Assembly (NCBI GenBank): GCA_022844165.1
Contig: JALHMH010000001.1
Span: 192,001-256,000 of the forward strand
DNA length: 64,000 nucleotides
From: Lysobacterales bacterium
GTDB lineage: Bacteria > Pseudomonadota > Gammaproteobacteria > Xanthomonadales > SZUA-5
Direction: 5' to 3'
The notes beneath the pieces were generated by a model. That model was not told the DNA's origin. It made no database searches and worked only from the letters and a program-made list of their open reading frames with translations. The first letter of the stretch is position 1, and each line of letters starts with the position of its first letter. Below, piece after piece: positions 5,008 through 64,000 of this stretch. The translations under genes were made by a program, and so were the position numbers.

Positions 5008-7550
5008 ATCCGTTGATCGAACTGTTAAAAGGAGAGTTGTTGCGCCTGCTCGACGAATTGCGTGACTGCGCGCGATTGGTACGCGATCCGGTCGCTGCGC
5101 CCAGTGCGCTGACGCGCTGGGGCGCTCGCACTCATAGTCTGCAGGGCGCACTCTCGATTCTTGGCAAGCAGCCTCTGAGCGAGATCGCCCAGGCCTTCCA
5201 ACAGCTGCGAGCGCCCGCTCAACTGATGTCGCCGGGCGTCGACATGGCATTGGCACTTCTAGCGGAGTTCACTGAACTGCCTGAGGCAAGCGTTGCCGAG
5301 TGGCTTGCAGCGGTCGGTCCGCGCGTAGCGGCGGCGGTCGCTGCGATGGACCATCGGCTACCCGAGGAGGCCGCCGCGGTACCAGGCGATCTCAACCCGA
5401 TTTTCACTTTGTTTCGCCAGGAAGTCGAAGACCAATGCGCACATCTGAACCAGATGCTGCTGCGTCTGGAGCAAGAGCCTGAGCGTCTGGAGCTGATCGC
5501 GCCCATCATGCGCGTGGTTCATTCAATCAAGGGTGCCGCGCGTGCCGTACGTATCGAACCTGCGGTCGAAATTGCGCACCGGATGGAAGACCGTATGTCG
5601 CGGGCGCAGCGCCGCGATGTCGCGGTTTCTGAGCCGCTGATCGAGTTTGCTTTGGGCGCGGTGGATCTGCTGCGCGCTCTGGCGCGCGATGGTGTTCGTG
5701 CCGAGTTGTTGCAGCGCAAGGATTCTTTGCTGGCGCAGCCCGAGGACGCCGCGGCGCCGATCACGCCGAGCATATCGCCCGTGCCGACTTACATTGCCGC
5801 CGAAGATGGCGACCCGGTGCTGCGTATCAAGGCGAGTCTGGTTGGGCGATTGATCGCGTTGGCAGGCTCTGGCGTTGTTGCCGTCCATCGTTTGCGGCCC
5901 TTCAACGCACGTCAACAACGTCTGCGGGGCACGATCGCCAATCTGGGCCGTCTGCTCGACGATCTGCATCATCGACTCGGGGCGCCCGGCGCCGGAACCC
6001 CGCTCGGTATTCAGCTGGCAGACGCTCGAGAGCAAATCGCCGATGCTCGCCATCAGGCGCAGACCTGGATCGACGATTTCGCCGAGTACACTCGCCATTC
6101 CGTCGATCTCAACGAGCGAATCTACCATGCTGCTTCGCTGACGCGCCTGCGCCCTTTTCGTGATCTCGTGTTGGGTTACCCGCGTATGGTGCGCGATATC
6201 GCGCGGCAGGTCGGCAAGCGTGTACGGCTCTTCGTTCACGGTGAGAACGTAGAAGTCGATCGCGATGTGATGGACAAGATCGATGCACCATTGACGCATC
6301 TGCTACGCAACGCCATCGACCACGGCATTGAAGATCCGCCGATACGAGCCGCGAGCGGCAAGCCTGAGGAGGGCAGCCTGCGGATCCACGCAAGTCATCG
6401 TGCCGGTATGCTGGCAATCGATATCGCCGATGATGGCGCGGGCGTGGATTTGCAACGTATACGCCGCCGCCTCGTCGAAATCGGCCGTCTGAGCGAGAGC
6501 GAAGTGGCGGTGCTGACCGAACACGCTTTGAAGGAGCATTTGTTCGCCTCGGGTTTTTCGACGCGAACGGAAATCACCGAGGTATCCGGGCGTGGCGTTG
6601 GGCTCGATGTGGTGCGCGATTCGATCGAACGCCTCGGCGGTAGCGTGCGCCTGACCACCCGCGAGGGCCTTGGCAGCACTTTTCATCTATTGGTGCCGAT
6701 CTCGCGAGCAGTGACCCGGGCGCTGGCGATCAGAGTGTGTGGCGAAATCTATGCTTTCCCCTCGCTGCGCATTGATCGTGTCGTCCGCGCCAGGCACGAC
6801 GACATCGCGTCGCGCGAGGGTCTGCAGTATCTGCCGCTCGACAGGCGCAACATCGGACTGGTGCCCCTGGCGGAGTTGCTCGATCTCGGCGCAACGCGCG
6901 TAGACGTCGAACGCCTGGATGTCGTGGTTGTCGAGCATCAAGGACGTGTTTGTGGCTTTGTGGTCGACGACCTTCTTGGCGAGTACGATCTTGTCACGCG
7001 TCCCTTGGATGTGCGCTTGGGTCGTGTCGCCGATCTCGCCGCTGTGGCCATTTTGCCGGACGGCGCTCCCGTCGTGCTGCTCGATGTCGACGACTTGATG
7101 CGAAGCGCTTTGAACCGCGAGCGCGCCAACCTGCGTCCGATCAGCGGCGAATCTGCGGCGCGGCGGCGCAAACGGATACTCGTTGCCGACGACTCGATAT
7201 CCGTGCGCGAGTTAGAGCGCCAGTTGCTGGCCGCTCGTGGTTTCGATGTCGAAGTGGCGGTCGATGGTATGGATGCCTGGACAAGGCTGCGCGGCGAGCC
7301 GTTCGATCTCCTTGTGACCGATGTCGATATGCCGCGGATGGATGGCATCGAGCTGACCAGGTCGGTCAAACAAGACCCACGTTTGCGGTCGGTACCTGTG
7401 GTGATCGTATCCTATCGGGACCGGCCAGAGGATCGCCGCCGGGGCATGGAAGCGCGCGCCGACAGTTACCTGACAAAATCTGACTTCCAGGACGAGAGCT
7501 TCGTTCGCCTCGTCCACCAGCTGGTTGGCGACGCCGAGGAGGTCCTGTGA
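5004..7550 (+). CDS. wspE: CheA-like hybrid kinase WspE
   Basis: Hpt HSIKGAAR, HLLRNAIDHGIE, SGRGVGLDVV, CheW domain, C-terminal receiver (DDS...TDVDMPRMDG). Confidence 0.92.
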   Translation: MNPLIELLKGELLRLLDELRDCARLVRDPVAAPSALTRWGARTHSLQGALSILGKQPLSEIAQAFQQLRAPAQLMSPGVDMALALLAEFTELPEASVAEWLAAVGPRVAAAVAAMDHRLPEEAAAVPGDLNPIFTLFRQEVEDQCAHLNQMLLRLEQEPERLELIAPIMRVVHSIKGAARAVRIEPAVEIAHRMEDRMSRAQRRDVAVSEPLIEFALGAVDLLRALARDGVRAELLQRKDSLLAQPEDAAAPITPSISPVPTYIAAEDGDPVLRIKASLVGRLIALAGSGVVAVHRLRPFNARQQRLRGTIANLGRLLDDLHHRLGAPGAGTPLGIQLADAREQIADARHQAQTWIDDFAEYTRHSVDLNERIYHAASLTRLRPFRDLVLGYPRMVRDIARQVGKRVRLFVHGENVEVDRDVMDKIDAPLTHLLRNAIDHGIEDPPIRAASGKPEEGSLRIHASHRAGMLAIDIADDGAGVDLQRIRRRLVEIGRLSESEVAVLTEHALKEHLFASGFSTRTEITEVSGRGVGLDVVRDSIERLGGSVRLTTREGLGSTFHLLVPISRAVTRALAIRVCGEIYAFPSLRIDRVVRARHDDIASREGLQYLPLDRRNIGLVPLAELLDLGATRVDVERLDVVVVEHQGRVCGFVVDDLLGEYDLVTRPLDVRLGRVADLAAVAILPDGAPVVLLDVDDLMRSALNRERANLRPISGESAARRRKRILVADDSISVRELERQLLAARGFDVEVAVDGMDAWTRLRGEPFDLLVTDVDMPRMDGIELTRSVKQDPRLRSVPVVIVSYRDRPEDRRRGMEARADSYLTKSDFQDESFVRLVHQLVGDAEEVL

Positions 7551-8580: not shown

Positions 8581-9758
8581 GTTCGATTCGTGTCCTGATG
8601 GTCGACGATCAGGCGATCATCCTCGCCGCACTGAGACAGATGCTGGCGCATGAGGCCGACCTGGAACTTCGCGGCTTGTCCGATCCACAACAAGCGTTGC
8701 AGGCTGCGCTGGAGTTCGAACCTGCGGTGATTCTTCAAGACCTGGTCATGGAGGGCCTGGATGGTCTGACGCTGCTAAAGCGCTATCGAGCACATCCCTT
8801 GCTGACGGATACGCCGGTGGTGATGTTGAGTGCTGCCGAAGAACCGGAAACCAAAGTCGAGGCTTTTCGGCTTGGAGCCAACGATTATGTGGTCAAGTTG
8901 CCCAGTGCACTGGAGCTTGCAGCACGTATTCGCTATCACGGCCGCAGCTTCTACAACATGCGACAGCGAGAAGCGGCTTTCCGGGCGCTGGTTGAGAGTC
9001 GCGCAGCGCTGGAACTGCGTCAGGCGGAAATCGAAGCACAAAAAGCACAGCTCGAAGCGCAGGCAAAACAACTCGAGGCGGTCAATCGCGAGTTGGCCGA
9101 CAGCGCATTGTCCGATGCGCTCACTGGACTCCGTAACCGGCGCTACTTGCGCATCTATTTGCAGAAGCCGCTATGCGAAATCACGGCGTCCGGCAGCAAG
9201 GGCGATCGGCGCCGCGTCGTCTCGGTCGAACGCGCAACTTTTTTCCTTTTGGACTTGGATCACTTCAAGCAGATCAACGACAAGCATGGTCACGACGCTG
9301 GCGACGCGGTGCTGGTCGAAGTCGCCTCACGTTTGCGCCAGACCTTACGCGAGGGCGATGCTGCGATGCGCTGGGGTGGCGAGGAGTTTCTGATTGTCGC
9401 GCGAGGATTGGACGATGCTGCTGCCGCCGTGCTCGCCGAGCGCATCATGGCCGTGGTTTCGGGCGCGCCTGTCGCAATGCCCCGGGGCCTGACGTTGCGG
9501 GTCACGATCTCTTTGGGCTTCGCATCCTTTCCATGGCACCGCGATGCACATACCGATTATCCATCGACCATCGCGCTCGCCGACGCCGGGACATACTTGT
9601 CGAAAACCGATGGACGCAATCGCGCAGTCGGCATACTTCCGGGTCCCGAGGCCGCCGATCTGGACGAACGAATCGAACGCATTTCGCTTGGCCCGGGGCT
9701 GTTGCGCCAGGAGAACGGGCGCAGTGTGCGCCTGGTCGAGATTCCTGGGCCGAACTGA
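8577..9758 (+). CDS. wspR: Response-regulator diguanylate cyclase WspR
   Basis: Receiver (VDD...QDLVM...KLP), coiled coil, DALTGLRNRR, RxxD I-site (REGD), GGEEF. Confidence 0.9.
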   Translation: MSSIRVLMVDDQAIILAALRQMLAHEADLELRGLSDPQQALQAALEFEPAVILQDLVMEGLDGLTLLKRYRAHPLLTDTPVVMLSAAEEPETKVEAFRLGANDYVVKLPSALELAARIRYHGRSFYNMRQREAAFRALVESRAALELRQAEIEAQKAQLEAQAKQLEAVNRELADSALSDALTGLRNRRYLRIYLQKPLCEITASGSKGDRRRVVSVERATFFLLDLDHFKQINDKHGHDAGDAVLVEVASRLRQTLREGDAAMRWGGEEFLIVARGLDDAAAAVLAERIMAVVSGAPVAMPRGLTLRVTISLGFASFPWHRDAHTDYPSTIALADAGTYLSKTDGRNRAVGILPGPEAADLDERIERISLGPGLLRQENGRSVRLVEIPGPN

Positions 9759-9977
9759 CGAAAACCAACCAAACGCGCCAGGCGAAACCGGGCACGGCCG
9801 TGCTGATTGCCGCCGTTGCGCGCGATGCTGCTGATCGGAGCCAGCGCGCGCGGGGGCTTGCCCGGTGTCGGATCCTTGGTTACTGTAATTCCCGCCGACG
9901 TCGCGAGCGGTCAGACGTTCAGTACCCGCCGGACGGCAGCGAAAACTCGTTGGTGTTCGAATCGCAAGGGGGCAGAA

Positions 9978-10385
9978 ATGAACAGCATACTTGGGATTGC
10001 GTTTGGTTTAATGGGAATGGGTTCGATGTTGTCGGCTCCATCGATCGCGTTGGCGCAGAGTAAGCGAATGGCACTGACCTGCGTTGGCACAAAAGTCGGC
10101 GCGATCAATTTTTCCTACCGCTGGGGTGAGGATGGCGATTGGACGAATGTCCAGATCGGCCCGGGTAAATGGCAAGTCATGGCATGGCGCTACAACCGGC
10201 AGAACGAAAACCAGTCGCCGCAGTTGCAAATTCGTTATGACGACGACCTGGGGAAAGGCGAGAACTTCTCGGTGACCGATCTCGAAAGCTACGCGGCCAG
10301 CAGCGATGACTGCGACGCCGAGGGTAAGACCTACCACTTTGTCGAAATCGACGGTGAGCTGTTTGTCGAGGACGACGAAACCTGA
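9978..10385 (+). CDS. Hypothetical exported protein
   Basis: Signal-peptide-like N-terminus ending ALA; two Cys; purine-rich RBS-like sequence upstream. Confidence 0.65.
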   Translation: MNSILGIAFGLMGMGSMLSAPSIALAQSKRMALTCVGTKVGAINFSYRWGEDGDWTNVQIGPGKWQVMAWRYNRQNENQSPQLQIRYDDDLGKGENFSVTDLESYAASSDDCDAEGKTYHFVEIDGELFVEDDET

Positions 10386-10463
10386 GCACGACTAGCGTCC
10401 TTGACGGAGCCGGATCTGTACATTTGAGTCAAATTTTCTGCGCAGCGGCTTTGGCAGTTGAAG

Positions 10464-10515
10464 CCCCCTTGAGTACAAGGGGGAGATTGAGCGCGCAGCG
10501 CTCAATGGGGGTTTT
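10464..10515. repeat. Double palindrome (REP-like element or terminator between convergent genes)
   Basis: CCCCCTTG-AGTA-CAAGGGGG then ATTGAGCGC-GCA-GCGCTCAAT then GGGGGTTTT. Confidence 0.55.
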
Positions 10516-10572
10516 GGCAAGTACGGTGTCTGGCGAAGCCAACAATGCTCGGCGGTCTGAGGCGAAGCCTCG

Positions 10573-11205
10573 CTAGCCGTCTACCGCCAAGGCAGCGGTC
10601 ATGGCCACCAGCTGCGTGCGGTGGTGGGCTCCGAGCTTGCGCAAAACAGCCGTGACATGCGCCTTGACCGTGGCCTCGGTAATCGTCAACTCGTGGGCGA
10701 TTTGTTTGTTGAGCTTACCCTCGCAGACGGCCAGCAGCACACGAAATTGCGCTGCGGTCAATTCGCGAAGCCTGGCAGCCAGCGCACGCTCGATGTCCGG
10801 CAACATTGGCGCACCACTCTGCGTCGGATCGACAATATCGCCGTCCAGCACGCGTTCGATCGCGGCGGTCATCTGCTCGGCCGACGCGGACTTCGGAATG
10901 AAGCCCGCGGCGCCGAAACCCAGTGCGCGGGCAATGGTCAGCGGGTCGCTACGCCCGGAAACAACGATGATCGGCAGCGTGGGGAATTGGGCGCGCAACG
11001 CGATCAGTGCCGAAAAGCCGCGCGCGCCAGGCATCGACAGATCGAGCAACAACAAATCGGTGTCTACATCCAGCGCGGCGTAAATGCCGGCGACGTCCCC
11101 CGCCTCGACCAGTTCTGCGTTTGCGAACGCGCGTTGCACGATGGTACGTAGCGCGTCGCGGAAAAGCGGATGGTCGTCGGCAAGCACGATGCGCATCGAG
11201 CTCAA
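10573..11205 (-). CDS. NarL/LuxR-family response regulator, CrbR/ErdR-like
   Basis: ADDHPLFR receiver, [23 protein letters not shown]; coupled to acs. Confidence 0.88.
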
Positions 11206-13139
11206 TCCGGTCGGGTGTCGATCAAGAACTGAACGACGCCCGGATCGGCGAGCGTAGAAATGTCGCCCAGATTCTCGAACTCGTTAGCGGCGATTTTGCG
11301 CAAAATGCGGCGCATGATTTTGCCTGATCGTGTCTTCGGCAATCCGGGTGCCCATTGGATCACATCTGGTGTGGCGATCGGGCCGATCTCCTGGCGTACG
11401 TGTGCCACCAACGACCGACGCAGTTCGTCGCTGGGCTCGATACCGGCCTTGAGCGTGACATAGGCATAAATGCCTTGCCCTTTGATATCGTGCGGACAAC
11501 CGACCACCGCCGACTCCGCTACGGCGGCATGCGCGACCAACGCGCTCTCGATTTCGGCGGTACCCAGACGATGGCCTGCGACGTTGATCACATCGTCGAC
11601 GCGGCCAGTGATCCACCAGTGGCCGTCGGCATCGCGCCGCGCGCCGTCGCCGGTGAAGTAATAACCACGGTAGGCTTTGAAGTACGTGTCGATGAAGCGC
11701 TGGTGATCGCCGTAGACCGTGCGCATTTGTCCCGGCCATGAGTCGGCAAGCACGAGATTGCCTTCGCTCGCGCCTTCGAGTACTCGGCCCTCGGCATCCA
11801 CCAACTCGGGGCGCACGCCATAAAAAGGTGTCATCGCCGAGCCTGGTTTGAGGTCGCATGCGCCTGGCAATGGTGTGATCAGCACGCCGCCGGTTTCGGT
11901 TTGCCACCAGGTATCGACAATGGGACAGCGCCCATCGCCGACGACGCGGTGATACCACTCCCAAGCCTCCGGATTGATCGGTTCGCCAACGCTGCCGAGC
12001 AGACGCAGGCTGGCGCGCGATGAAGATCTGACCGGCGCTTCGCCCTCGCGCATCAATGCGCGGATGGCGGTCGGCGCGGTGTAGAAGATCGTCACCTGGT
12101 GTTTGTCGACGACATCCCAAAAGCGCGAAAAACTCGGGTAGTTCGGTACGCCCTCGAACATCAATGTGGTCGCGCCATTGCACAACGGGCCATAGACGAC
12201 ATAGCTGTGACCGGTGACCCAGCCGACATCCGCGGTGCACCAGTAGACATCGCCCTCGCGCAGATCGAACACCGTTTCGTGCGTGTAGGAGGCGTAGACC
12301 AGGTAACCGCCGGTGGTGTGCAACACGCCTTTGGGCTTACCGGTCGATCCGGAGGTATACAGAATGAACAGCGGGTCCTCCGCGCTCATTGGTTCCGGTT
12401 CGCACTGCGCTGGTTGCTCTGCTGTCAGATCGTGGTACCACTGATCGCGGCCGTTGCTCCAGGCAATCGGCACTTCGGTATGGCGCACCACGATCACGCG
12501 CTCGACGCAACTGGTGGCCGGGTCCTCGAGCGCAACATCCACGTTCGCCTTCAGCGGCACCGACTTGCCGCCGCGCAGTCCAGCATCGGCGGTGATCACG
12601 AGCTTGCTTTGGCAGTCGGAGATCCGTCCGATCAGCGCTTCGGGCGAGAAGCCACCGAAGACAATCGAATGCACTGCACCGATGCGCGCGCAGGCGAGCA
12701 TCGCCACGGCCGCTTCGGGAATCATCGGCAGATAGATCGTCACGCGATCGCCCTTGCGCACGCCTTGAGCGCGTAGCGCATTGGCGAAGCGGCAAACGCG
12801 TTCGTACAACTCGCGGTAGGTCAGCGCATAGCTGACGTGGGGGTTGTCGCCCTCGAACAGGATTGCCGTCTGATGCTCGCGAACCGCCAGATGTCGATCC
12901 AGGCAATTGACCGAGACATTGAGCACACCGTCGTAGAACCAACGAACGCGAAAGTCCTCCGGCAGGAATGAGACGTCTTTGACGCGCGTGAACGGCTTCA
13001 TCCACTGCAGGCGCTGGCCGATGAGCCCCCAGAAGCGATTCGGATCCGCAATCGAGGCTTGATAGCTGGCCGCGTAGCGCTCTGGCGTCACTTGGGCGGC
13101 TGCGAGGAATTCCGGGCTCGGTGGATAGAGTTTGCTCAT
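11202..13139 (-). CDS. acs: Acetyl-CoA synthetase
   Basis: [32 protein letters not shown]. Confidence 0.97.
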
Positions 13140-56952: not shown

Positions 56953-59946
56953 TTACTCAAACGAGTTTGCGAAGACGAACTCAGGTGGAATTTGAGCGTT
57001 GTATCGTCCGCCGGTGTTGAGTAAACCGCTACCACTTTCGCCACCCCAGACGATCATCTCGTTGCCGGTCCATACGGCCGAGTGCCGACTTCTCGCACTT
57101 GGCGATCCGCTGCTTGATATCAATTGCCAACGATCTGTTTCAGGCCGATAGCGCCCTCCACTTGCTAGATAATCAGCACCAAAGCCAGCCCAGATTATCA
57201 CTTCGCTGCCTGTCCATATGGCCGTATGTCCGAACCTCGCACTTGGGGCATTGCCCATTGGCATTGCCTTCCAGCTGATAGTGCCTGGGTCGTAGCGAGC
57301 ACCGTCACCGAAATCAGAACCAACACGTCTGCCGCCCCAAACGACCATCTCGGCACCAGTCCACACGGCGGTGTGATCGTACCGTCCGGCTGGCGCACCG
57401 TTGCTTTGAGTCGCCTGCCAGACATCAGAGCGAGGGTCATAATGTCCACCATCGCCAATGTGAGTGCCGTCACCATAGCCGCCCCAGATGATCATTTCGC
57501 TCCCCGTCCACACTGCAGTGTGCGCGTACCGAGGGCTCGGCGCGCCACTGCTTTGAGTGGCCCGCCAGGTATCCATGCCAGGGTCATAACGTCCGCCACT
57601 GTCGAGAAACGGGCCGCCATAGCCGCCCCAAACAATCATCTCACTGCCAGTCCACACAGCGGTATGTCCGAACCGCTGACTTGGCACGTCAACGCCTTGT
57701 AACGAGCGCCAGCTATTGGTACCAGGGCTGTATCGACCCCCGCTCGCAAGCGCGGAACCGCCCCGACCACCCCAGACGATCATTTCATTGCCGGTCCACA
57801 CGGCGACATGTCCGTACCGCCCGCTTGGCGATCCACTGGTCGGCATAGGCAGCCAGCTGTCGACGCTTGGGATGTAGCGCATGCCGTCGGCAAGGTGAGT
57901 ACTAGCGAGACCACCCCACAAAATCATCTCATTGCCGGTCCACACGGCGGTGTGCAGGCGGCGTGCGTCAGGCGCATCATTCGGCGTCGCTTGCCAGCTA
58001 TTGGTGTCGGGACGGTAGCGTCCGCCGCTGGCCGCGAAGAAACCGTCCGAGCCACCCCAGCCGCCCCAAACGATCATTTCGCTGCCAGTCCATACCGCCG
58101 AGTGGGAGTGCCGCGCGCTCGGCGCACTGCTATTTTGCATATCTTGCCAATCATCGGTCCTCGGGTTGTAGCGCCCGCCGCTGGCGACGAAGGATCCACC
58201 CCAACCACCCCAGACGATCATCTCGCTGCCGGTCCACACAGCGATGTGGCCGGACCGTGCACTTGGCGCACCAATGCTCTGACTCGCCAGCCAGTCATTG
58301 GTGTCCGGACGATACCGTCCGCCGCTCGCGAAATGATCTTCGCCGTCAAAACCACCCCAAACGACCATCTCACTGCCCGTCCATAGAGCCGAATGATGCC
58401 GACGCCCAGATGGCGCACCGATGTTTGGCATCGGCTGCCATCCATTCGTGCGCGGGTTGTAACGTGCGCCGGTTGCCAAATAAGAACCGTCATAACCACC
58501 CCAGACAATCATCTCGTTACCGGTCCACACCGCAGTGTGATTTCGACGTGCCTCAGGCGCATCTGTGCTGGCCATCGCCTGCCAGCTATCCTTGCCTGGG
58601 TCGAAACGCGCCCCGCTGAAAAGAAGAGTATCGCCAGCACCACCCCAAACGATCATCTCGCTACCGGTCCAAACCGCCGAGTGGCGATGCCGGCCACTGG
58701 GCGCCCCGTCGGGCGGCATTGGTCGCCAGCTATCGATGCTCGGGTTATAGCGCCCCCCATCAGCCAAATTCAGGGGGCTGGCGAGGCTTCCTGAGCCGCC
58801 CCACACAATCATCTCGGTACCTGTCCATACCACCGAGTGACCACTCCGCGCCCTCGGCGCACTGTTGGTCTGCGTCTGTTGCCAGCTGTCGGTGGTCGGG
58901 TTGTAACGTCCGCCGACTGCAAGTAGTCCGCTATCGTTTTCGCCACCCCAGATGATCATCTCAGTGCCGGTCCAGACAGCGGTATGAAGCCACCGCCCGT
59001 CCGGCACGTCCTTCATCGATCGCCAACTGCCTGATGCCTCTTTCTCCACAATCAACTCGGTTCCTGTGATCTCGGGCAGCTCCAGTAGCTCAACCACGAC
59101 TCTTGCTGCTGGATGGGACTTGCGTTGATCTGTCCACCAAGCGTCGAAACTCCGCTTGGGCCAGTAGCGAGTGCGTACTTCCAGGCGATCTTGCTGATCC
59201 GACAGTAGCGTCTCCTCGACAAAACCATTTGCAGTCTCGCGAAGAGACGGTTGGTAGAAATCTGCCCAAAGTAGACGTTTTCCAGACAACTGTAACCGCG
59301 AACGCATTTGGCCAAAATCCGCAACGTTGAGATCGACGGTCATTGGCACTGTCGCTGATTCTGGAGCAACTCTTGGCGGAGACGATTCATCCCTTAGCAG
59401 GTACACAATGCGCTGCTCCGCTCCACCGCTGCGTTCAATCAAATCGGCGGCGGCGCCAGCCGCCAGAACCGACTGCGCCGTCGCGCGCAGCGCACGGCGT
59501 TGCCGTTCATCGTAAGCGTATGCCTCGCGCAAACGGCGCGCGACGAGCAGGGGGCGCACCAGGCATTCGCCAATCAACACGGCATCGTTACCCAGCGCCT
59601 GAAATTGCTCGCGAAGGCGATCCGGTGCGCGGGTGCCGAATGCAATGCGGTTAAGTTCCGTTTGAAGCGCATGCCGATCAATGCGCACGTTGTACCACTG
59701 GAAGAGCGCAGCTTCCTGGCGCAGCGCGTCAGTAACTTGCTGGCGGAGAAGCACATCACTGAAAACCGAAGCACGAGCCGGCTTGGGGTGAGGATTCGAT
59801 TCCGGCCAAATCGTGTGCGACCACTTCAAGTCCTCGATGATCGCCGAGCATGCGACGCGTTCGTCGAGCCTCAAAGCAGCAGCATTCGCCGTGCAGCATG
59901 CGATCATCAACATCCAAATCAGGCGGGCCAGCACGTTCGCTTTCAT
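56953..59946 (-). CDS. Secreted Kelch-like repeat protein (14 repeats)
   Basis: Signal peptide; 14 copies of HxAVWTGxEMIVWGG; C-terminal FVFANSFE. Confidence 0.9.
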   Translation of the reverse strand: MKANVLARLIWMLMIACCTANAAALRLDERVACSAIIEDLKWSHTIWPESNPHPKPARASVFSDVLLRQQVTDALRQEAALFQWYNVRIDRHALQTELNRIAFGTRAPDRLREQFQALGNDAVLIGECLVRPLLVARRLREAYAYDERQRRALRATAQSVLAAGAAADLIERSGGAEQRIVYLLRDESSPPRVAPESATVPMTVDLNVADFGQMRSRLQLSGKRLLWADFYQPSLRETANGFVEETLLSDQQDRLEVRTRYWPKRSFDAWWTDQRKSHPAARVVVELLELPEITGTELIVEKEASGSWRSMKDVPDGRWLHTAVWTGTEMIIWGGENDSGLLAVGGRYNPTTDSWQQTQTNSAPRARSGHSVVWTGTEMIVWGGSGSLASPLNLADGGRYNPSIDSWRPMPPDGAPSGRHRHSAVWTGSEMIVWGGAGDTLLFSGARFDPGKDSWQAMASTDAPEARRNHTAVWTGNEMIVWGGYDGSYLATGARYNPRTNGWQPMPNIGAPSGRRHHSALWTGSEMVVWGGFDGEDHFASGGRYRPDTNDWLASQSIGAPSARSGHIAVWTGSEMIVWGGWGGSFVASGGRYNPRTDDWQDMQNSSAPSARHSHSAVWTGSEMIVWGGWGGSDGFFAASGGRYRPDTNSWQATPNDAPDARRLHTAVWTGNEMILWGGLASTHLADGMRYIPSVDSWLPMPTSGSPSGRYGHVAVWTGNEMIVWGGRGGSALASGGRYSPGTNSWRSLQGVDVPSQRFGHTAVWTGSEMIVWGGYGGPFLDSGGRYDPGMDTWRATQSSGAPSPRYAHTAVWTGSEMIIWGGYGDGTHIGDGGHYDPRSDVWQATQSNGAPAGRYDHTAVWTGAEMVVWGGRRVGSDFGDGARYDPGTISWKAMPMGNAPSARFGHTAIWTGSEVIIWAGFGADYLASGGRYRPETDRWQLISSSGSPSARSRHSAVWTGNEMIVWGGESGSGLLNTGGRYNAQIPPEFVFANSFE

Positions 59947-60000
59947 CAAACTATCGCTTCTTCTTATGTATCCGAAATTTTAGTGCGAAATTCTGACAGC

Positions 60001-62538
60001 CAAGCGGATCAGCTCACGGCCGGCGTCGACAACGTCTTGGGGTCGACGATATCGTTCTTTGCACCATATGTCGCGCGACTATTCGTACGACCGCTTCGCG
60101 CGCTCGGCGAGTGTGCAGACGTTATTGAAAGAGGACAAATACGTCAGCCGCACAACGTACGACAAATACGGGCGCGTGTTCCATTCCTTCGATCCGATCC
60201 GGACAGCACCAGCCCATTCGGCCAATTCCAGGTCTACTCAGCCGATGGATTCCCCATCGGGATTCGGGAAGCTGCGGATGGCACGACGGGTATCTTGTAC
60301 AACGAAGTCCTGTCGCTGACGGCACGGCAACAAGTCCGCCGCGAGCGTTATCACGGTAGCAACAATCTGGTCAGCGAGCGCACGTTCGACGACAACACCG
60401 GGCGCTTGGCGACAATTAGGACGGGCACATTCAGTGGAGGAGTCGTTGGTGGCCAGTTGCAGGATTGGACGACAAACTGGGACAAGAATGGCAATCTGAC
60501 GATGCGCCATGATCGAACCGCTGGCGCGGATTCGAAGGAAGTATTTGGCTACGATGCGCTCGATCGATTGACGACGGTGAACCAGACGATCGGCTCGTCG
60601 CCAGCCATCAACACGCTCACGCTCGCTTACGACCAGCTCGGCAACATCACCATGAAGTCCGGGTCTGGCGCCGCAAATCTTGGCGCCTACGCCTACAACA
60701 GCACCCCCGCGCAAACCGGTTGCGCGCTGCCCGCAGGCCCGCACGCGGTCAGTCTGGTCGCAGGCAAGAGTTACTGTTACGACGAAAACGGTAACAACAC
60801 GCAGGTGCGCAAATTCGGCAGCGCGATCCGTACCATCGCCTATACCGGCTTCGATCTGCCAGAGCAGATCGTGCGTAATGAGCCTACCAGTGAGGGAGCC
60901 ATCCAGGCCGAGGTGAGCTTCAAGTACGCGATCGATCGCAGTGTGTACGAGCGGCTTGACAACGATTCCACCAGGACGCGATACGTCGGCAATGTTGAGT
61001 TCATCGCCGATGGCAGGAGCGATATCGTCAAGCGCTACATTGGCGGCTTTCTGGTCATCACTAAAGTGCTCCAAGGTGGGAACGCCACCTATGACTATTT
61101 GCTGCGCGACAGTTTAGGGAGCATCGATACGGTTGCCAGCGAAACCGGGGCGCTCAGGAGCCGCCAGAGCTTCAATGCGCACGGCCAGCGGCGCAACGCC
61201 GCGACCGCCGGTGGCGGCTGGACCTTGTTGACGCTGCTCCAAGCCGCCGCATTTGCCAACACCACCAGCCCGACCACTCAGGGGTTCACCGGCCATGAGC
61301 AACTTGATCAAGTCGGCCTGGTGCATATGGGCGCACGGCTGTACGATGCCGAGATCGGGCGGTTCCTCCAGGCCGACGACTTCGTCGAACCTGAGGCCAC
61401 GCAGGGGCTGAATCGGTACAGTTATGTACTCAATAATCCGCTGACCGCCACCGATCCGACGGGGAACTTCTCGCTTAGGCAGGCGATCGGGATTGTCATT
61501 GGCGTCGTCGCCGCGATCATCAGCCAGCAGTATTGGGCAATCGACAAACTGATCTCGTTCGGCATCGCCGTTGCTGGCGGATTCGCAAGCGCAGCGATCT
61601 CGACCGGCTCGCTCAAAGCAGGGTTGTGGGGTGCGGTCAGTGCGGCAGTGTTCTGGGGCATTGGCACGCAGTTCTCGAAGGCGTGGGCGTTCGACACGGG
61701 AACTGCTTGCACGCAGCACATGACCCGAGGGGCTGTTGCGGCAAAGGTCGCGGCACACGCAGCGACAGGAGGAACGCTTAGCGTCCTGCAGGGCGGCAAG
61801 TTTGGCCATGGATTCTTCTCCGCTGGATTTACTGAAGCGCTAAGTCCGGCCGTGGGACAGATGGGCGATGGAAAGTCGTTCGGAAGCGTTCTCGGACGTA
61901 CCGCAGCTAGCGCCACAATTGGTGGGACGGTGAGTAAGTTGACCGGTGGGTCGTTCGCAAATGGGGCGGTCACGGCGGCGTTCACGGTTGCGTTCGGAAA
62001 TGCGATCAGCGAAACCATTGCGTTTTCTGGGCAGGAAACGATGGAAGAAATGGTTGATCCGGAAGAAGATATCGGGTCTGGGGAAGCCATATTTAACGAG
62101 GTTGTCACAGAGTTTCGAGATTCCGGAAGCCTCCCGAGTCATATACAAATCGCGTACAGCGACGATTTAGCATACTTCAGAAACAACGAAATAGTGCGTT
62201 TTAGATCAGCGGAAGAGGCGCGGGCAGCGGGCTTTTATGGAGCAGGGATCGCTGGCTATACCCAGACCCGAGTTGTGGATGGGCAAACTCAAGCGCGAAT
62301 CCTGATTTTGAGAGGCGCTGCGCACCCACGAAGTGCACTTGTCGCCATGACTTCTATGGACAGAGCAACTTGGCGACCTATCGTATTCACCAGACATGGC
62401 ATGATGCGTTTTACGATTGCTCATGAGATCCGCCATGCACTTGACTCGTCTCTTGGTAGCTCTTCGGGCTTAGATCATTGGCGTGCGAATGAATACGGCA
62501 GGACCGTGTGCAGGCAACTTGGAGGTGGTTGTGGGTAA
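60001..62538 (+). pseudogene. 5'-truncated, frameshifted Rhs/YD-repeat polymorphic toxin (orphan module) with HEXXH C-terminus
   Basis: YD repeats, GFTGHEQLD...HMGARLYD...NRYSYVLNNPLTATDPTG core; no credible start; 5' boundary approximate. Confidence 0.85.
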
Positions 62539-63058
62539 GTATTTTTTCTGTTTGTTTTTGTGCCCCTCGTTTGCGAGTGCTACAACTGAGGCCGCCTTGG
62601 TAAACAAAGATTATCGGCATGCGACGATTGTAGAAGCAGAAGCGACGGAGGCTGTTGACCGGGATTGTTATGTGTTCGAAACAAAGTCCGCTGGCAAGAT
62701 CAGTCTACGGATAATAGGAGTTGGACCAGGGGACAAATTTGTTGTGGTTCTGCCAAGGAGAATTCCGAAGTGTTTCGCGGTCCCGAGAGACCCAAGAGTT
62801 ATTATGCTCGTGACGGTCGATGGGCTTAATTTGGCGACACTGTCGTGCGATGGCTTCGACCCACTCGCTCGTTTTTTGGAGCTGAGTAGCATTGCATTAT
62901 TGGATGACAAAGAGCCGCGCAATTTCAATGGGTGCAATACGTCCAAAATTGTAGATAAGAGAGATGCGATGGCATTTCTATACCGAATGTGGCTGGGTGT
63001 AAACGTTGATGTCGTTGGTGGGAGCGCAATCGAACCTTTCTTACAAACTAAAGAATGA
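62531..63058 (+). CDS. Probable cognate immunity protein (exported)
   Basis: GTG overlapping the Rhs stop; signal-peptide-like start; visibly lower GC, like the toxin tip. Confidence 0.6.
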   Translation: MGKYFFCLFLCPSFASATTEAALVNKDYRHATIVEAEATEAVDRDCYVFETKSAGKISLRIIGVGPGDKFVVVLPRRIPKCFAVPRDPRVIMLVTVDGLNLATLSCDGFDPLARFLELSSIALLDDKEPRNFNGCNTSKIVDKRDAMAFLYRMWLGVNVDVVGGSAIEPFLQTKE

Positions 63059-63125
63059 GCGACGGCGACAACAATGCGTGGCGCACCTACACAGAATCAT
63101 TTGGTCCCTGTCGGCTCGGAGCACC

Positions 63126-64000
63126 AAGCTGAAAAAAGAGAAAGCTGAAAAAAGAGACACCCAGTTTTCGAAGCGCGCAAGCAGTGGTGGTGGCATCCAG
63201 GGCTACGGATGTCGAAATCGCTGTTCGGAGGAAGGAGGTTTTGAGCGCGCACGCAACGCGCCCAGACGCCAGCGGCGCCAAGAATCCCATGTGAGTTTCT
63301 CAGCCGGTCACGAGGCTCCGGGCGTAGCCGATGCCTTTGAGCCATTTCCGCTTCCACTCTGCGGCCTTGGCTTCGAGTGCTTCCACGCTGGCAACGAAGC
63401 GCCAATATCCAGAGCCGACGCCTTTGACGTGCGCGGTCCGGTAGTTGGAACTGGACTGCGGAGGAACTGGACTGCGGACACCCAGTGCGCCAGGCGAAGC
63501 TGGCGCGATCTAGGTGACAAATCGGAACTAACAATATTTGCCGCCTGTAACGTCTCCGCCGGGGCGATCATTCCGGAGTTTTGGCATCGAACAGCAAGGG
63601 GACATTGTTCGAGACTATTACTACCTGAGGCAGGGTAAGGAAAAAGAGACACCCGGTAAGGAAAAAGAGACACCCAGTTTTCGAAGCGCGCGAGCAGTGT
63701 GGTGGCATCTAGGGCTACGGATGTCGAAATCGCTGTTCGGAGGAAGGAGGTTTTGAGCGCGCACGCAACGCCTCCAGACGCCAGCGGCGCCAAAAGTCCC
63801 ATGTGAGTCTCTCAGCCGGTCACAAGGCTCCTGGCATAGCCGATGCCTTTGAGCCACTGCTGTTTCCACTGCGCAAGGGAAAAAGAGACACCCAGTTTTC
63901 GAAGCGCGCGAGCAGTGGTGGTGGCAAAAAAAGAGACACCCAGTTTTCGGAGCGCGCAAGCAGTGGTGGTGGCATCCAGGGCTACGGATGTCGAAATCGC
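63126..64000 (-). mobile_element. Array of truncated copies of one element end, with transposase-like C-terminal remnants
   Basis: Four copies start AAAAAGAGACACCCAGTTTTCG (about 63148, 63662, 63880, 63927); two carry minus-strand ...WLKGIGYARSLVTG* remnants. Confidence 0.75.

Follow-up and report, generated by a model that had tools for sequence, protein, structure and literature searches.

Why should a Rhs toxin-immunity module be followed by a row of short repeats that all begin alike and break off at different points? The question is raised by the last part (positions 63126 to 64000) of a 64,000-nt stretch of DNA from a Lysobacterales bacterium (GenBank assembly GCA_022844165.1, contig JALHMH010000001.1, positions 192,001 to 256,000), hereafter referred to as the window. 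The window corresponds to C1:192001-256000 of the source genome (G000), a metagenome-assembled draft of 59 contigs. An initial annotation, made from the letters of the window, had noticed the repeats and attributed them to one-ended transposition of the HUH type next to Rhs cassettes, a mechanistic guess that proved largely right. The array is real, and it is near certain that it represents a stack of inward-truncated right ends (REs) of an insertion sequence (IS)-like element of about 1.3 kb that carries a HUH/Y1 gene and no other. The array is thus the right-end debris of a known but uncharacterized kind of HUH element. The account favored here, in which right ends are truncated by abortive HUH copying in an element linked to Rhs cassettes, has in our estimate a probability of about 0.6 as a whole. 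Its new components are the defined ends of this subclass of elements, the family-wide occurrence of stub arrays with decaying lengths, and an orientation-specific association with Rhs.

An Array of Truncated Right Ends

The 20-mer AAAGAGACACCCAGTTTTCG occurs four times in the window, at 63151, 63664, 63882 and 63930 and only on the plus strand, whereas 0.01 occurrences are expected by chance and none of 100 shuffles reached four. It belongs to four copies in the same orientation, designated A to D (Table 1), which start with AAAAAGAGACACCCAGTTTTCG at 63148/63151, 63662/63664, 63880/63882 and 63927/63930. The fixed start and variable stops described initially were confirmed for these four copies by sequence, repeat search and shuffles: copy A measures 305 nt, copy B about 220 nt and copy C about 50 nt (47–52), and copy D reaches the window edge and continues past it. 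The full-length parent, which had been left to be sought by extending the window, was reached in L001, the stretch of the source genome that includes the next 18 kb (L001 ~7250 equals window coordinate ~65250). There, copy D continues into a complete open reading frame (ORF) on the minus strand (L001 6080-7066/7210) that codes for a HUH/Y1 protein of 376 aa, or 328 aa from a conserved ATG, and a tRNA-Asn gene follows 90 nt past it (L001 7297-7371). Because copy D runs into this gene, the repeats consist of the 3′ end of the HUH gene and about 150 nt downstream of it, up to a fixed terminus. Read in the sense of the gene, the copies have their 3′ (outer) end in common and are cut at different points on their 5′ (inner) side. 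The proposal of an HUH-type system therefore held, the last copy being the 3′ end of a RAYT-like HUH/Y1 gene.

Copy A is 95.7% identical to the full copy (blastn, 255148-255448 vs 255927-256228), copy B matches copies A and D at about 92% identity, and the first 40 nt of copy C are identical to copy B. Stubs of 10 and 14 bp had also been reported; short repeats are indeed present but amount to exact tandem duplications of 2 × 16, 2 × 16 and 2 × 21 nt, all three of which stop exactly 16 nt outside the CACCC core. Likewise, the DNA between copies that had been taken as unique is so in part: 63507-63633 has no match in the source genome or in any of the fetched loci, but 63463-63506 is the terminus of a diverged right end, which matches the right-end arrays of genomes G124 and G084 at 82–94%. 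The repeat search detected no inverted repeat in 61000-64000, in line with the impression that a partner end was missing, yet the family does have inverted ends, and the partner of this one lies outside the window. Copies anchored by GACACCCAG, when mapped genome-wide, are not scattered: GAGACACCCAG has four matches here and one unrelated match in the 4.68-Mb source genome, and the exact end type occurs only at this locus. The array is not a CRISPR array, as had been recognized from the start.

Table 1. Positions of the array components and of the neighboring Rhs module in the window.
Feature	Position	Strand	Basis
Rhs gene fragment, 5′-truncated	59500..62538	+	ORF listing; NCBIfam TIGR03696
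Candidate immunity gene	62483..63058	+	position only
RE tip tandem duplication, exact 2 × 16 nt, outermost right-end tip	63126..63157	-	repeat search + sequence
Copy A, RE fragment: last ~49 HUH codons, 3′ region, tip	63142..63446 (±2)	-	repeat search, blastn
Exact 2 × 16-nt tandem duplication, tip of diverged right end	63447..63478	-	repeat search
Diverged right-end terminus: tip, core GACACCCAGT, 7-bp hairpin (GCGCCAG...CTGGCGC)	63463..63506	-	sequence
DNA between copies	63507..63633	.	sequence comparison
Exact 2 × 21-nt tandem duplication, right-end stub including core	63634..63675	-	sequence, gene-sense view
Copy B, RE fragment: last ~24 codons, 3′ region, tip	63655..63874	-	repeat search, blastn
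Copy C, RE stub of ~47–52 nt	63875 (about)..63926	-	repeat search
Copy D, RE tip of full element	63927 (or 63921)..64000	-	continues to ~65150 in window coordinates

A RAYT-like Member of the HUH/Y1 Superfamily

The protein encoded by the full copy is a divergent, RAYT-like member of the HUH/Y1 (IS200-RAYT) superfamily. Profile searches place it below the cut-offs of the relevant families (Pfam Y1_Tnp, E 0.005, 17.4 bits against a cut-off of 23; NCBIfam REP_Tyr_transpos, 38.3 bits against 80), and sequence searches of the PDB, with the single sequence and with a profile, returned no match. On the other hand, a database search scored 7951 homologues, mostly of 316–320 aa, and the named ones (JGI) are called “REP element-mobilizing transposase RayT.” Across 32 aligned homologues, the residues N70-H71-L72-H73 and Y178-V-D-L-N-P are either invariant or conserved to at least 90%, i.e., the protein has both the HUH metal-binding motif and the single catalytic tyrosine that define the superfamily. 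An AlphaFold (AF2) model (pLDDT 82.2, pTM 0.86) was compared with known structures by Foldseek, in which ranks 1 to 23 are all Y1 transposases (4ER8, 2XM3, 2EC2, 2VIC, 2A6M, and 2F4F) with probabilities of 0.97–1.0. The top fold is 4ER8, the REP-associated tyrosine transposase TnpA-REP of E. coli; because only the core of the enzyme aligns, no E-value is better than 1.9e-3, and TMq is 0.2–0.3.

Within this superfamily, the enzyme best fits TnpA-Y1 subclass 2.3 as judged from its motifs and from Table 1 of the survey of Quentin, Siguier, Chandler and Fichant (2018; PMC6006769). It resembles that subclass in length (328 aa here, a median of 325 there), in a tyrosine motif that is identically YVDLNP, in a HuH motif of the N-H-x-H type, in a large insertion between core strands (helices 80–149 in the model) followed by a long C-terminal tail, and in the presence of several diverged gene copies per genome with no dispersed REP family. 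It differs in that the HuH motif reads NHLH here and NHYH there, and in distribution, the subclass being reported mainly from Chromatiales and Alteromonadales, whereas the present elements are common in Lysobacterales and associated with Rhs. Moreover, the subclass is described in the available text of the survey as devoid of identifiable flanking structures, its role being left open, while inverted ends, subterminal hairpins and end-anchored stub arrays are found here. The subclass is very large (more than 7900 homologues were scored), and the survey, as far as its available text goes, lists neither substrate, ends nor role for it. The locus and its relatives provide subclass 2.3 with defined inverted ends, a footprint of activity in vivo, and a non-random partner in the form of Rhs cassettes.

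Inverted Ends and Genomic Spread of the Element

Among 199 genomes taken from the order, 98 contained the HUH gene. The source genome itself holds about 10 near-full copies of the element (62–95% aa identity) and many fragments, as seen by tblastn and blastn, with many of them located at contig ends. From the gene outward, the 3′ flanks of these elements bear a conserved hairpin (GGCGCC-GCT-GGCGTC), a stretch that varies between subfamilies and usually contains a perfect hairpin of 5–9 bp, the core ACTGG[GA]TGTC, and some 10–12 conserved nt. Since the 5′ flanks bear the reverse complement of this core, the element has inverted ends, with core G[GA]GACA[CTG]CCA and a conserved tip extending 10–12 nt past it.

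The core alone is not over-represented in the source genome (174 found, 239 expected), and a genome-wide search with the core motif revealed no dispersed REP-like family there. A single-copy gene accompanied by dispersed REPs or REPINs, as in REPtrons or domesticated RAYTs (groups 2 and 3), is therefore not what is found; the gene is multicopy. No empty site for the element was recovered from the same-genus genome G022, either for the window locus or for two other loci. The window locus coincides with a break of synteny between the two genomes: the tRNA-Asn side aligns from L001 ~7250 onward, and the DNA upstream of tRNA-Asn in G022 corresponds to C13:66207-76865 of the source genome and not to the Rhs/element region.

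Several other features were encountered next to element copies or ends. Small clusters of end cores without a nearby tnpA lie at C1:6147-6198 (an inverted pair at 6147/6198), C3:31507-31551 and C20:~81939 of the source genome; these may have remained from lost elements or represent solo ends. In G022 (C22 ~9400-12000, L056), an element of the IS110 family (DEDD) lies precisely within the RE core of a RAYT-like element, and remnants or neighbors of the same IS110 occur at the C54 and C32 copies of the source genome (L010:804-1214 and L002:7447-7830), which suggests that an IS110-family element targets these right ends, as some IS110 relatives target REP sequences. One copy adjoins the end of a type I-E-like CRISPR array (G000:C4:207000-215508, L008; repeat CGGTTGATCCCCGCGCGTGCGGGGAAC) that has cas genes upstream (Cas_CT1975, Cas5, Cas6e-like, and Cas1). 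Finally, 1.4 kb near element copies (L004:7060-8500) is 98% identical to G022:C22:5815-7256, whereas syntenic DNA of the two genomes is otherwise ~75–77% identical; this stretch is probably recently exchanged mobile DNA.

Stub Arrays Are a Family-wide Trait

The array of the window is not isolated. Right-end arrays of the same kind occur in the source genome at C3a, C47, C28, C28b, C42, and C3f, and many copies have mirror-image arrays at their left end. Stubs were counted in a pool composed of the source genome, seven other genomes, short best-match loci of the order and 75 related loci, after duplicate loci had been dropped. Full-length copies with enough flank and a recognizable core were scored for a further outward core in the same orientation within 1400 nt. 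Of the 81 right ends, 56 have at least one such extra core, as do 44 of the 88 left ends, yielding 134 right and 91 left stub intervals, vs. 30 and 31 antisense control cores in the same stretches. The intervals are concentrated next to the ends: in the bins <50, 50–100, 100–200, 200–400, 400–800 and 800–1400 nt, right ends have 46, 34, 23, 15, 9, and 7 and left ends 35, 23, 11, 9, 5, and 8, respectively, so that the density of right-end intervals drops about 80-fold across the bins. Counted within 800 nt, 49 of 80 scored right ends are positive, from a total of 124 of which 7 were dropped as too near the end of their locus. Clean tandem duplications recur in many lineages with an outer boundary 10–17 nt past the core (16 nt in the lineage of the window) and a variable inner boundary. 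Outward-facing, end-anchored stubs are thus a trait of the whole family.

How the Stubs May Arise

This distribution of stub lengths fits copying initiated at the element end better than cut-and-paste transposition, as the initial annotation had argued from the array of the window. We consider the chances about even that the stubs result from abortive, end-initiated copying or strand transfer by the HUH enzyme. In such a scheme, the enzyme would nick the strand running from tip to interior just outside the tip and would keep its tyrosine linked to the 5′ end. The 3′-OH of the flank would then be extended briefly, or a strand would be displaced from another copy, and the tyrosine-bound 5′ tip would be joined to whichever 3′-OH is available, leaving a partial copy (tip to point x) ahead of the complete one. 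The outcome would be an aborted one-ended rolling-circle event resolved at the tip of the element. Inverted ends would expose both sides of the element to the same process, and donor strands supplied by other copies would account for the divergence of stubs. A fixed outer and variable inner end, the outward orientation, the mirror symmetry and the decay in length are all expected if the HUH enzyme nicks, extends and rejoins. A related reaction is documented for TnpA-REP, whose Tyr-5′P intermediate was resolved in vitro by the 3′-OH of an added oligonucleotide, which became fused to the cleaved 5′ end, according to the available text of PMC8266576. Should the enzyme be a mere passenger of the Rhs loci, the stub arrays would still document abortive HUH strand transfer in nature, of which records are rare.

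A number of observations weigh against abortive copying or blur the evidence for it. The strand and position of the nick are deduced from the junctions alone; the 3′ ends joined there share no common nucleotide, unlike the 3′ C that TnpA-REP of E. coli needs, and the junction of C to D shows a tip of 10–11 nt instead of 16. The left end of the window's own copy is devoid of a canonical core. Stubs A, B, and C differ by 4–8% from the adjacent full copy, and one stub of the window belongs to another subfamily; given their divergence, A, B, and C are not fresh local copies, and donors in trans, age or later conversion must be invoked. Eight whole right ends do not fold better as DNA than their shuffles (z from +0.66 to −1.63), the subterminal hairpins being short local features recognized by eye through their recurrence. 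The orientation of elements relative to replication (co:anti), with the origin placed at dnaA and the terminus opposite and with array members that are not independent, is 22:3 in G026, 0:5 in G054, 0:6 in G028, 1:4 in G050, and 5:12 in G096; the bias is thus strong within a genome and opposite in sign between genomes. As to the counts of stubs, 37 of the 124 right ends had no core that the regular expression could detect and were left unscored, and related genomes and arrays are not independent samples.

Of the explanations that dispense with abortive copying, the most trivial is that a repeat was collapsed or expanded during assembly. The draft state of the source genome, the many element copies at its contig ends and the B-C-D junctions, which none of the listed exact Logan contigs bridges in a stretch with exact cover in parts only, are what such an artifact could build on. 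However, Logan contigs, which come from four runs of a single study that possibly dealt with the source sample, match exactly at L001 4863-5116, 5096-5346, 5410-5740, and 7127-7342; they span the immunity spacer, all three tandem duplications (two of 16 nt and one of 21 nt) and the junction of left end and tRNA, and bridge the junctions of spacer, 16-nt duplication and A as well as those of A, 16-nt duplication, diverged terminus, 21-nt duplication and B. The left half of the array, including both short duplications, is therefore crossed by independent exact contigs. Two further Logan joints (5294>5809 and 5799>5288) link copies A and B, which are 92% alike, and may be graph artifacts or other strains; they were not used. 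Because a like architecture is found in genomes assembled as one contig (G096, G026, and G054) and in about 20 further genomes, misassembly is unlikely as a general explanation, and for the array itself it can hardly be credited. Instability driven by the host, i.e., slippage, unequal crossing-over or gene conversion at hairpin-rich ends without any part played by the HUH enzyme, finds some footing in the microsatellite-like short repeats at the tips of C3f, C15, and C48 and in the tandem units of equal length (2 × ~152 nt) at C47. Yet slippage predicts neither an outer boundary fixed with respect to the core across lineages with unrelated tips, nor mirror symmetry at both ends, nor neighboring stubs of different subfamilies, and we regard host instability as very improbable.

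Self-insertion followed by deletion is a somewhat better contender, although still an unlikely one. An element would insert into a resident copy, and homologous recombination would delete one of the two, leaving an older fragment anchored at the end. The divergence of stubs from the neighboring full copy and the occurrence of stubs at both ends would follow naturally, and near-full “stubs” exist, such as the copy at G022:C17, which lacks aa 1–18 and adjoins the right end of the next copy. On the other hand, insertion points would have to fall overwhelmingly within 100 nt of the tips, the inner ends of stubs share no target motif while their lengths decay as described above, and the exact 16-nt duplications include 5–6 nt of non-conserved flank, which an incoming element does not carry. 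Abortive HUH copying is accordingly retained as the favored source of the stubs, with the even chances given above.

Association with Rhs Cassettes

At C1 (the window), the beginning of C28, and C47, a right end of the source genome faces an Rhs toxin-immunity module at its 3′ end. A right end also adjoins an interrupted Rhs repeat region at C10, and C42 has a truncated copy 1.4 kb behind the end of an Rhs core. The association was quantified from both sides, Rhs being detected with no more than two query proteins, and related genomes and array members being non-independent trials. On the Rhs side, TIGR03696 identified 54 core ends in G000, G022, G026, G096, and G124. A tnpA match starts within 3 kb downstream of 15 of them (at 1181–2885 nt; 18 within 5 kb) and upstream of 2, compared with a chance expectation of ~1–4% each; 11 of the 15 downstream matches are convergent with Rhs and 4 are co-directional, the Rhs-linked copies of G026 being of the latter kind. 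On the side of the elements, Rhs lies within 4 kb of the right end in 14 of 67 full copies from eight genomes, convergent in every case, and on the left side in 8. A second sample, in which all positives are from new genomes, has Rhs at 7 of 57 testable right ends (6 convergent) but at 1 of 63 left ends. The nearest outward ORFs of 99 right ends are mostly blank in Pfam; the remainder comprise 4 RHS, 1 PT-HINT, 3 IS110 transposases and assorted others. The DNA that follows the C54 right end, 97% identical to G022:C62, had been considered as another Rhs cassette and proved to be the end of an IS110-family element.

Comparison of the C47 and C28 loci delimits the variable segment. Their Rhs core ends are 90% identical and their RE/tnpA regions 97.6%, whereas the ~940 and ~1070 nt in between, which comprise toxin tip and immunity gene, cannot be aligned, and homology resumes at the outermost right-end tip. 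In these alignments, the RE tip marks the distal boundary of the exchangeable Rhs toxin-immunity cassette. Repeated units of the form element, 1–1.9 kb of variable DNA, and ~1.1 kb of Rhs core fragment are arrayed in G084 (L077) and G096 (L065), where the tnpA copies of one array are 66–97% identical and where two G096 units have the same junction between left end and Rhs fragment. In one unit of the latter array (L065, 11860-12500 and 16340-16500), the tnpA stop is followed directly by a complete gene of the XRE-type helix-turn-helix kind; the next unit has this gene interrupted by its RE, so that the gene seems to belong to the cassette region. On a FastTree phylogeny of 156 full copies, the 23 Rhs-adjacent ones need 16 state changes (shuffles, 16–23, mean 21.1), and on this tree the association has therefore arisen many times and does not stem from a single hitch-hiking lineage. 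The tie to Rhs put forward initially is thus real, recurs in other genomes and is orientation-specific. It is not exclusive, and the idea of a dedicated Rhs system has to be abandoned, 81 of 104 testable copies having no Rhs nearby.

Does the Enzyme Drive Cassette Exchange?

How the C-terminal ends of Rhs proteins are displaced through circular or otherwise exchangeable intermediates has been an open question since 2009, and an enzyme that nicks and joins DNA and is encoded, in a fixed orientation, between one cassette and the next offers a concrete candidate for the task. The tips might serve as single-strand recombination sites at which the enzyme would generate circles made of core fragment, toxin, immunity gene and element, the stubs being scars of capture. 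This possibility extends the favored account and does not exclude it, and we hold it to be doubtful. Several observations agree with it: the RE tip lies exactly where homology resumes past the variable cassette, every array cassette has its own tnpA (diverged as stated), the left-end junction is identical in two units, orientation is fixed (14/14 and 6/7 convergent), the tnpA tree implies many origins of the association, and circular intermediates of open origin were proposed in the available text of Jackson et al. (2009; PMC2935791). Against it stand the large majority of elements without Rhs, the co-directional copies of G026, and the fact that homologous recombination between conserved flanks suffices to exchange cassettes, in which case the element could be a passenger. 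Moreover, no junction indicative of a circle was detected; the joints between Logan contigs are ambiguous because they fall in repeats, and Logan data, consisting of contigs only, are uninformative on ends, strands and circles. The more general proposition that Rhs C-terminal displacement in Lysobacterales is powered by RAYT-like HUH/Y1 elements, which would stack cassettes in an integron-like manner by HUH chemistry, is equally tentative. The enzyme may drive the exchange of cassettes, or the element may simply do well in Rhs loci.

Relation to Known Systems

The closest described elements may be sought among several groups, each of which differs in one or more traits. IS200/IS605 elements (IS608, ISDra2, “peel and paste”) likewise rely on a Y1 HUH fold and have subterminal hairpins and a cleavage site (deduced here from the junctions) at a set distance from the recognized structure. 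They also have a replication-linked orientation bias; the present elements lean to one side in each complete genome checked, but with a sign that differs between genomes and with counts that include non-independent array members. However, their ends are not inverted repeats and their transposase has ~150 aa, whereas the present elements have inverted ends. To our knowledge, stub arrays are not a described feature of IS200/IS605. IS91 and ISCR elements also use HUH chemistry, have one fixed and one variable end, and can mobilize adjacent genes, but their transposases are of the Y2 type and their variable end lies outside the element as a result of read-through, instead of inside it as a result of truncation. 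No Pfam match to Y2_Tnp or Zn_Tnp_IS91 was found here, and the likeness to IS91/ISCR is behavioral only. The integron also serves as no more than an analogy, as no IntI tyrosine recombinase with attI/attC was found among the ORFs of L001 or of the arrays.

TIRYTs, or TIRtrons (Di Nocera et al., 2013; PMC3733652), come nearer, as they consist of RAYT-like Y1 genes between terminal inverted repeats (TIRs) whose motif GGGGWSAS resembles the core G[GA]GACA[CG] and which occur as singles, dimers or clusters. Nevertheless, the TIRYTs listed are placed in subclasses 2.1, 2.2, and 2.5 in the available text of Quentin et al. (PMC6006769), and the text of PMC3733652, figures and supplements aside, reports no variably truncated copies, length distribution or link to Rhs. 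On the side of Rhs, the C-terminal displacement described by Jackson et al. (PMC2935791; orphan toxin-immunity arrays, see also Poole, 2011, and Koskiniemi, 2014) resembles the present loci in its arrays of core fragment, variable tip and immunity gene downstream of Rhs, and its model invokes homologous recombination and circular intermediates that carry “any intervening genes.” It differs in that no HUH/Y1 element appears as a regular component, and the words “transposase” and “insertion sequence” do not occur in the available text. A search of open-access full text found no link between RAYT-like/Y1 enzymes and Rhs or polymorphic-toxin cassettes. Two recent surveys of Rhs, in Stenotrophomonas and Xanthomonas, make no mention of these enzymes in their available text, and that of Zhang et al. 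(2012) uses “transposase” once, in another context.

The Rhs Module of the Window

The module next to the array is recognizably of the Rhs type. Its gene fragment matches TIGR03696 (Rhs_assc_core) at aa 589–655 with an E-value of 7.8e-19 (68 bits against a cut-off of 32.5), the core ending at 61264-61464 (C1:253264-253464) and being followed by a C-terminal, putative toxin region of ~357 aa. The candidate immunity gene probably starts at a GTG at 62531, overlapping the Rhs stop codon, and its product has a lipoprotein-like N-terminal signal. Neither the Rhs C-terminus nor this product has a match in Pfam or NCBIfam. A candidate remnant of a left end, located at L001 ~1975 upstream of the Rhs fragment, was rejected because its local alignment scores did not rise above those of shuffles; had it been genuine, the cassette would lie between inverted ends. 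The C-terminal region of the Rhs protein ends in HEIRHALD (window 62400-62470), and this HExxH-like motif (HEIRH) hints at a toxin of the metallopeptidase type.

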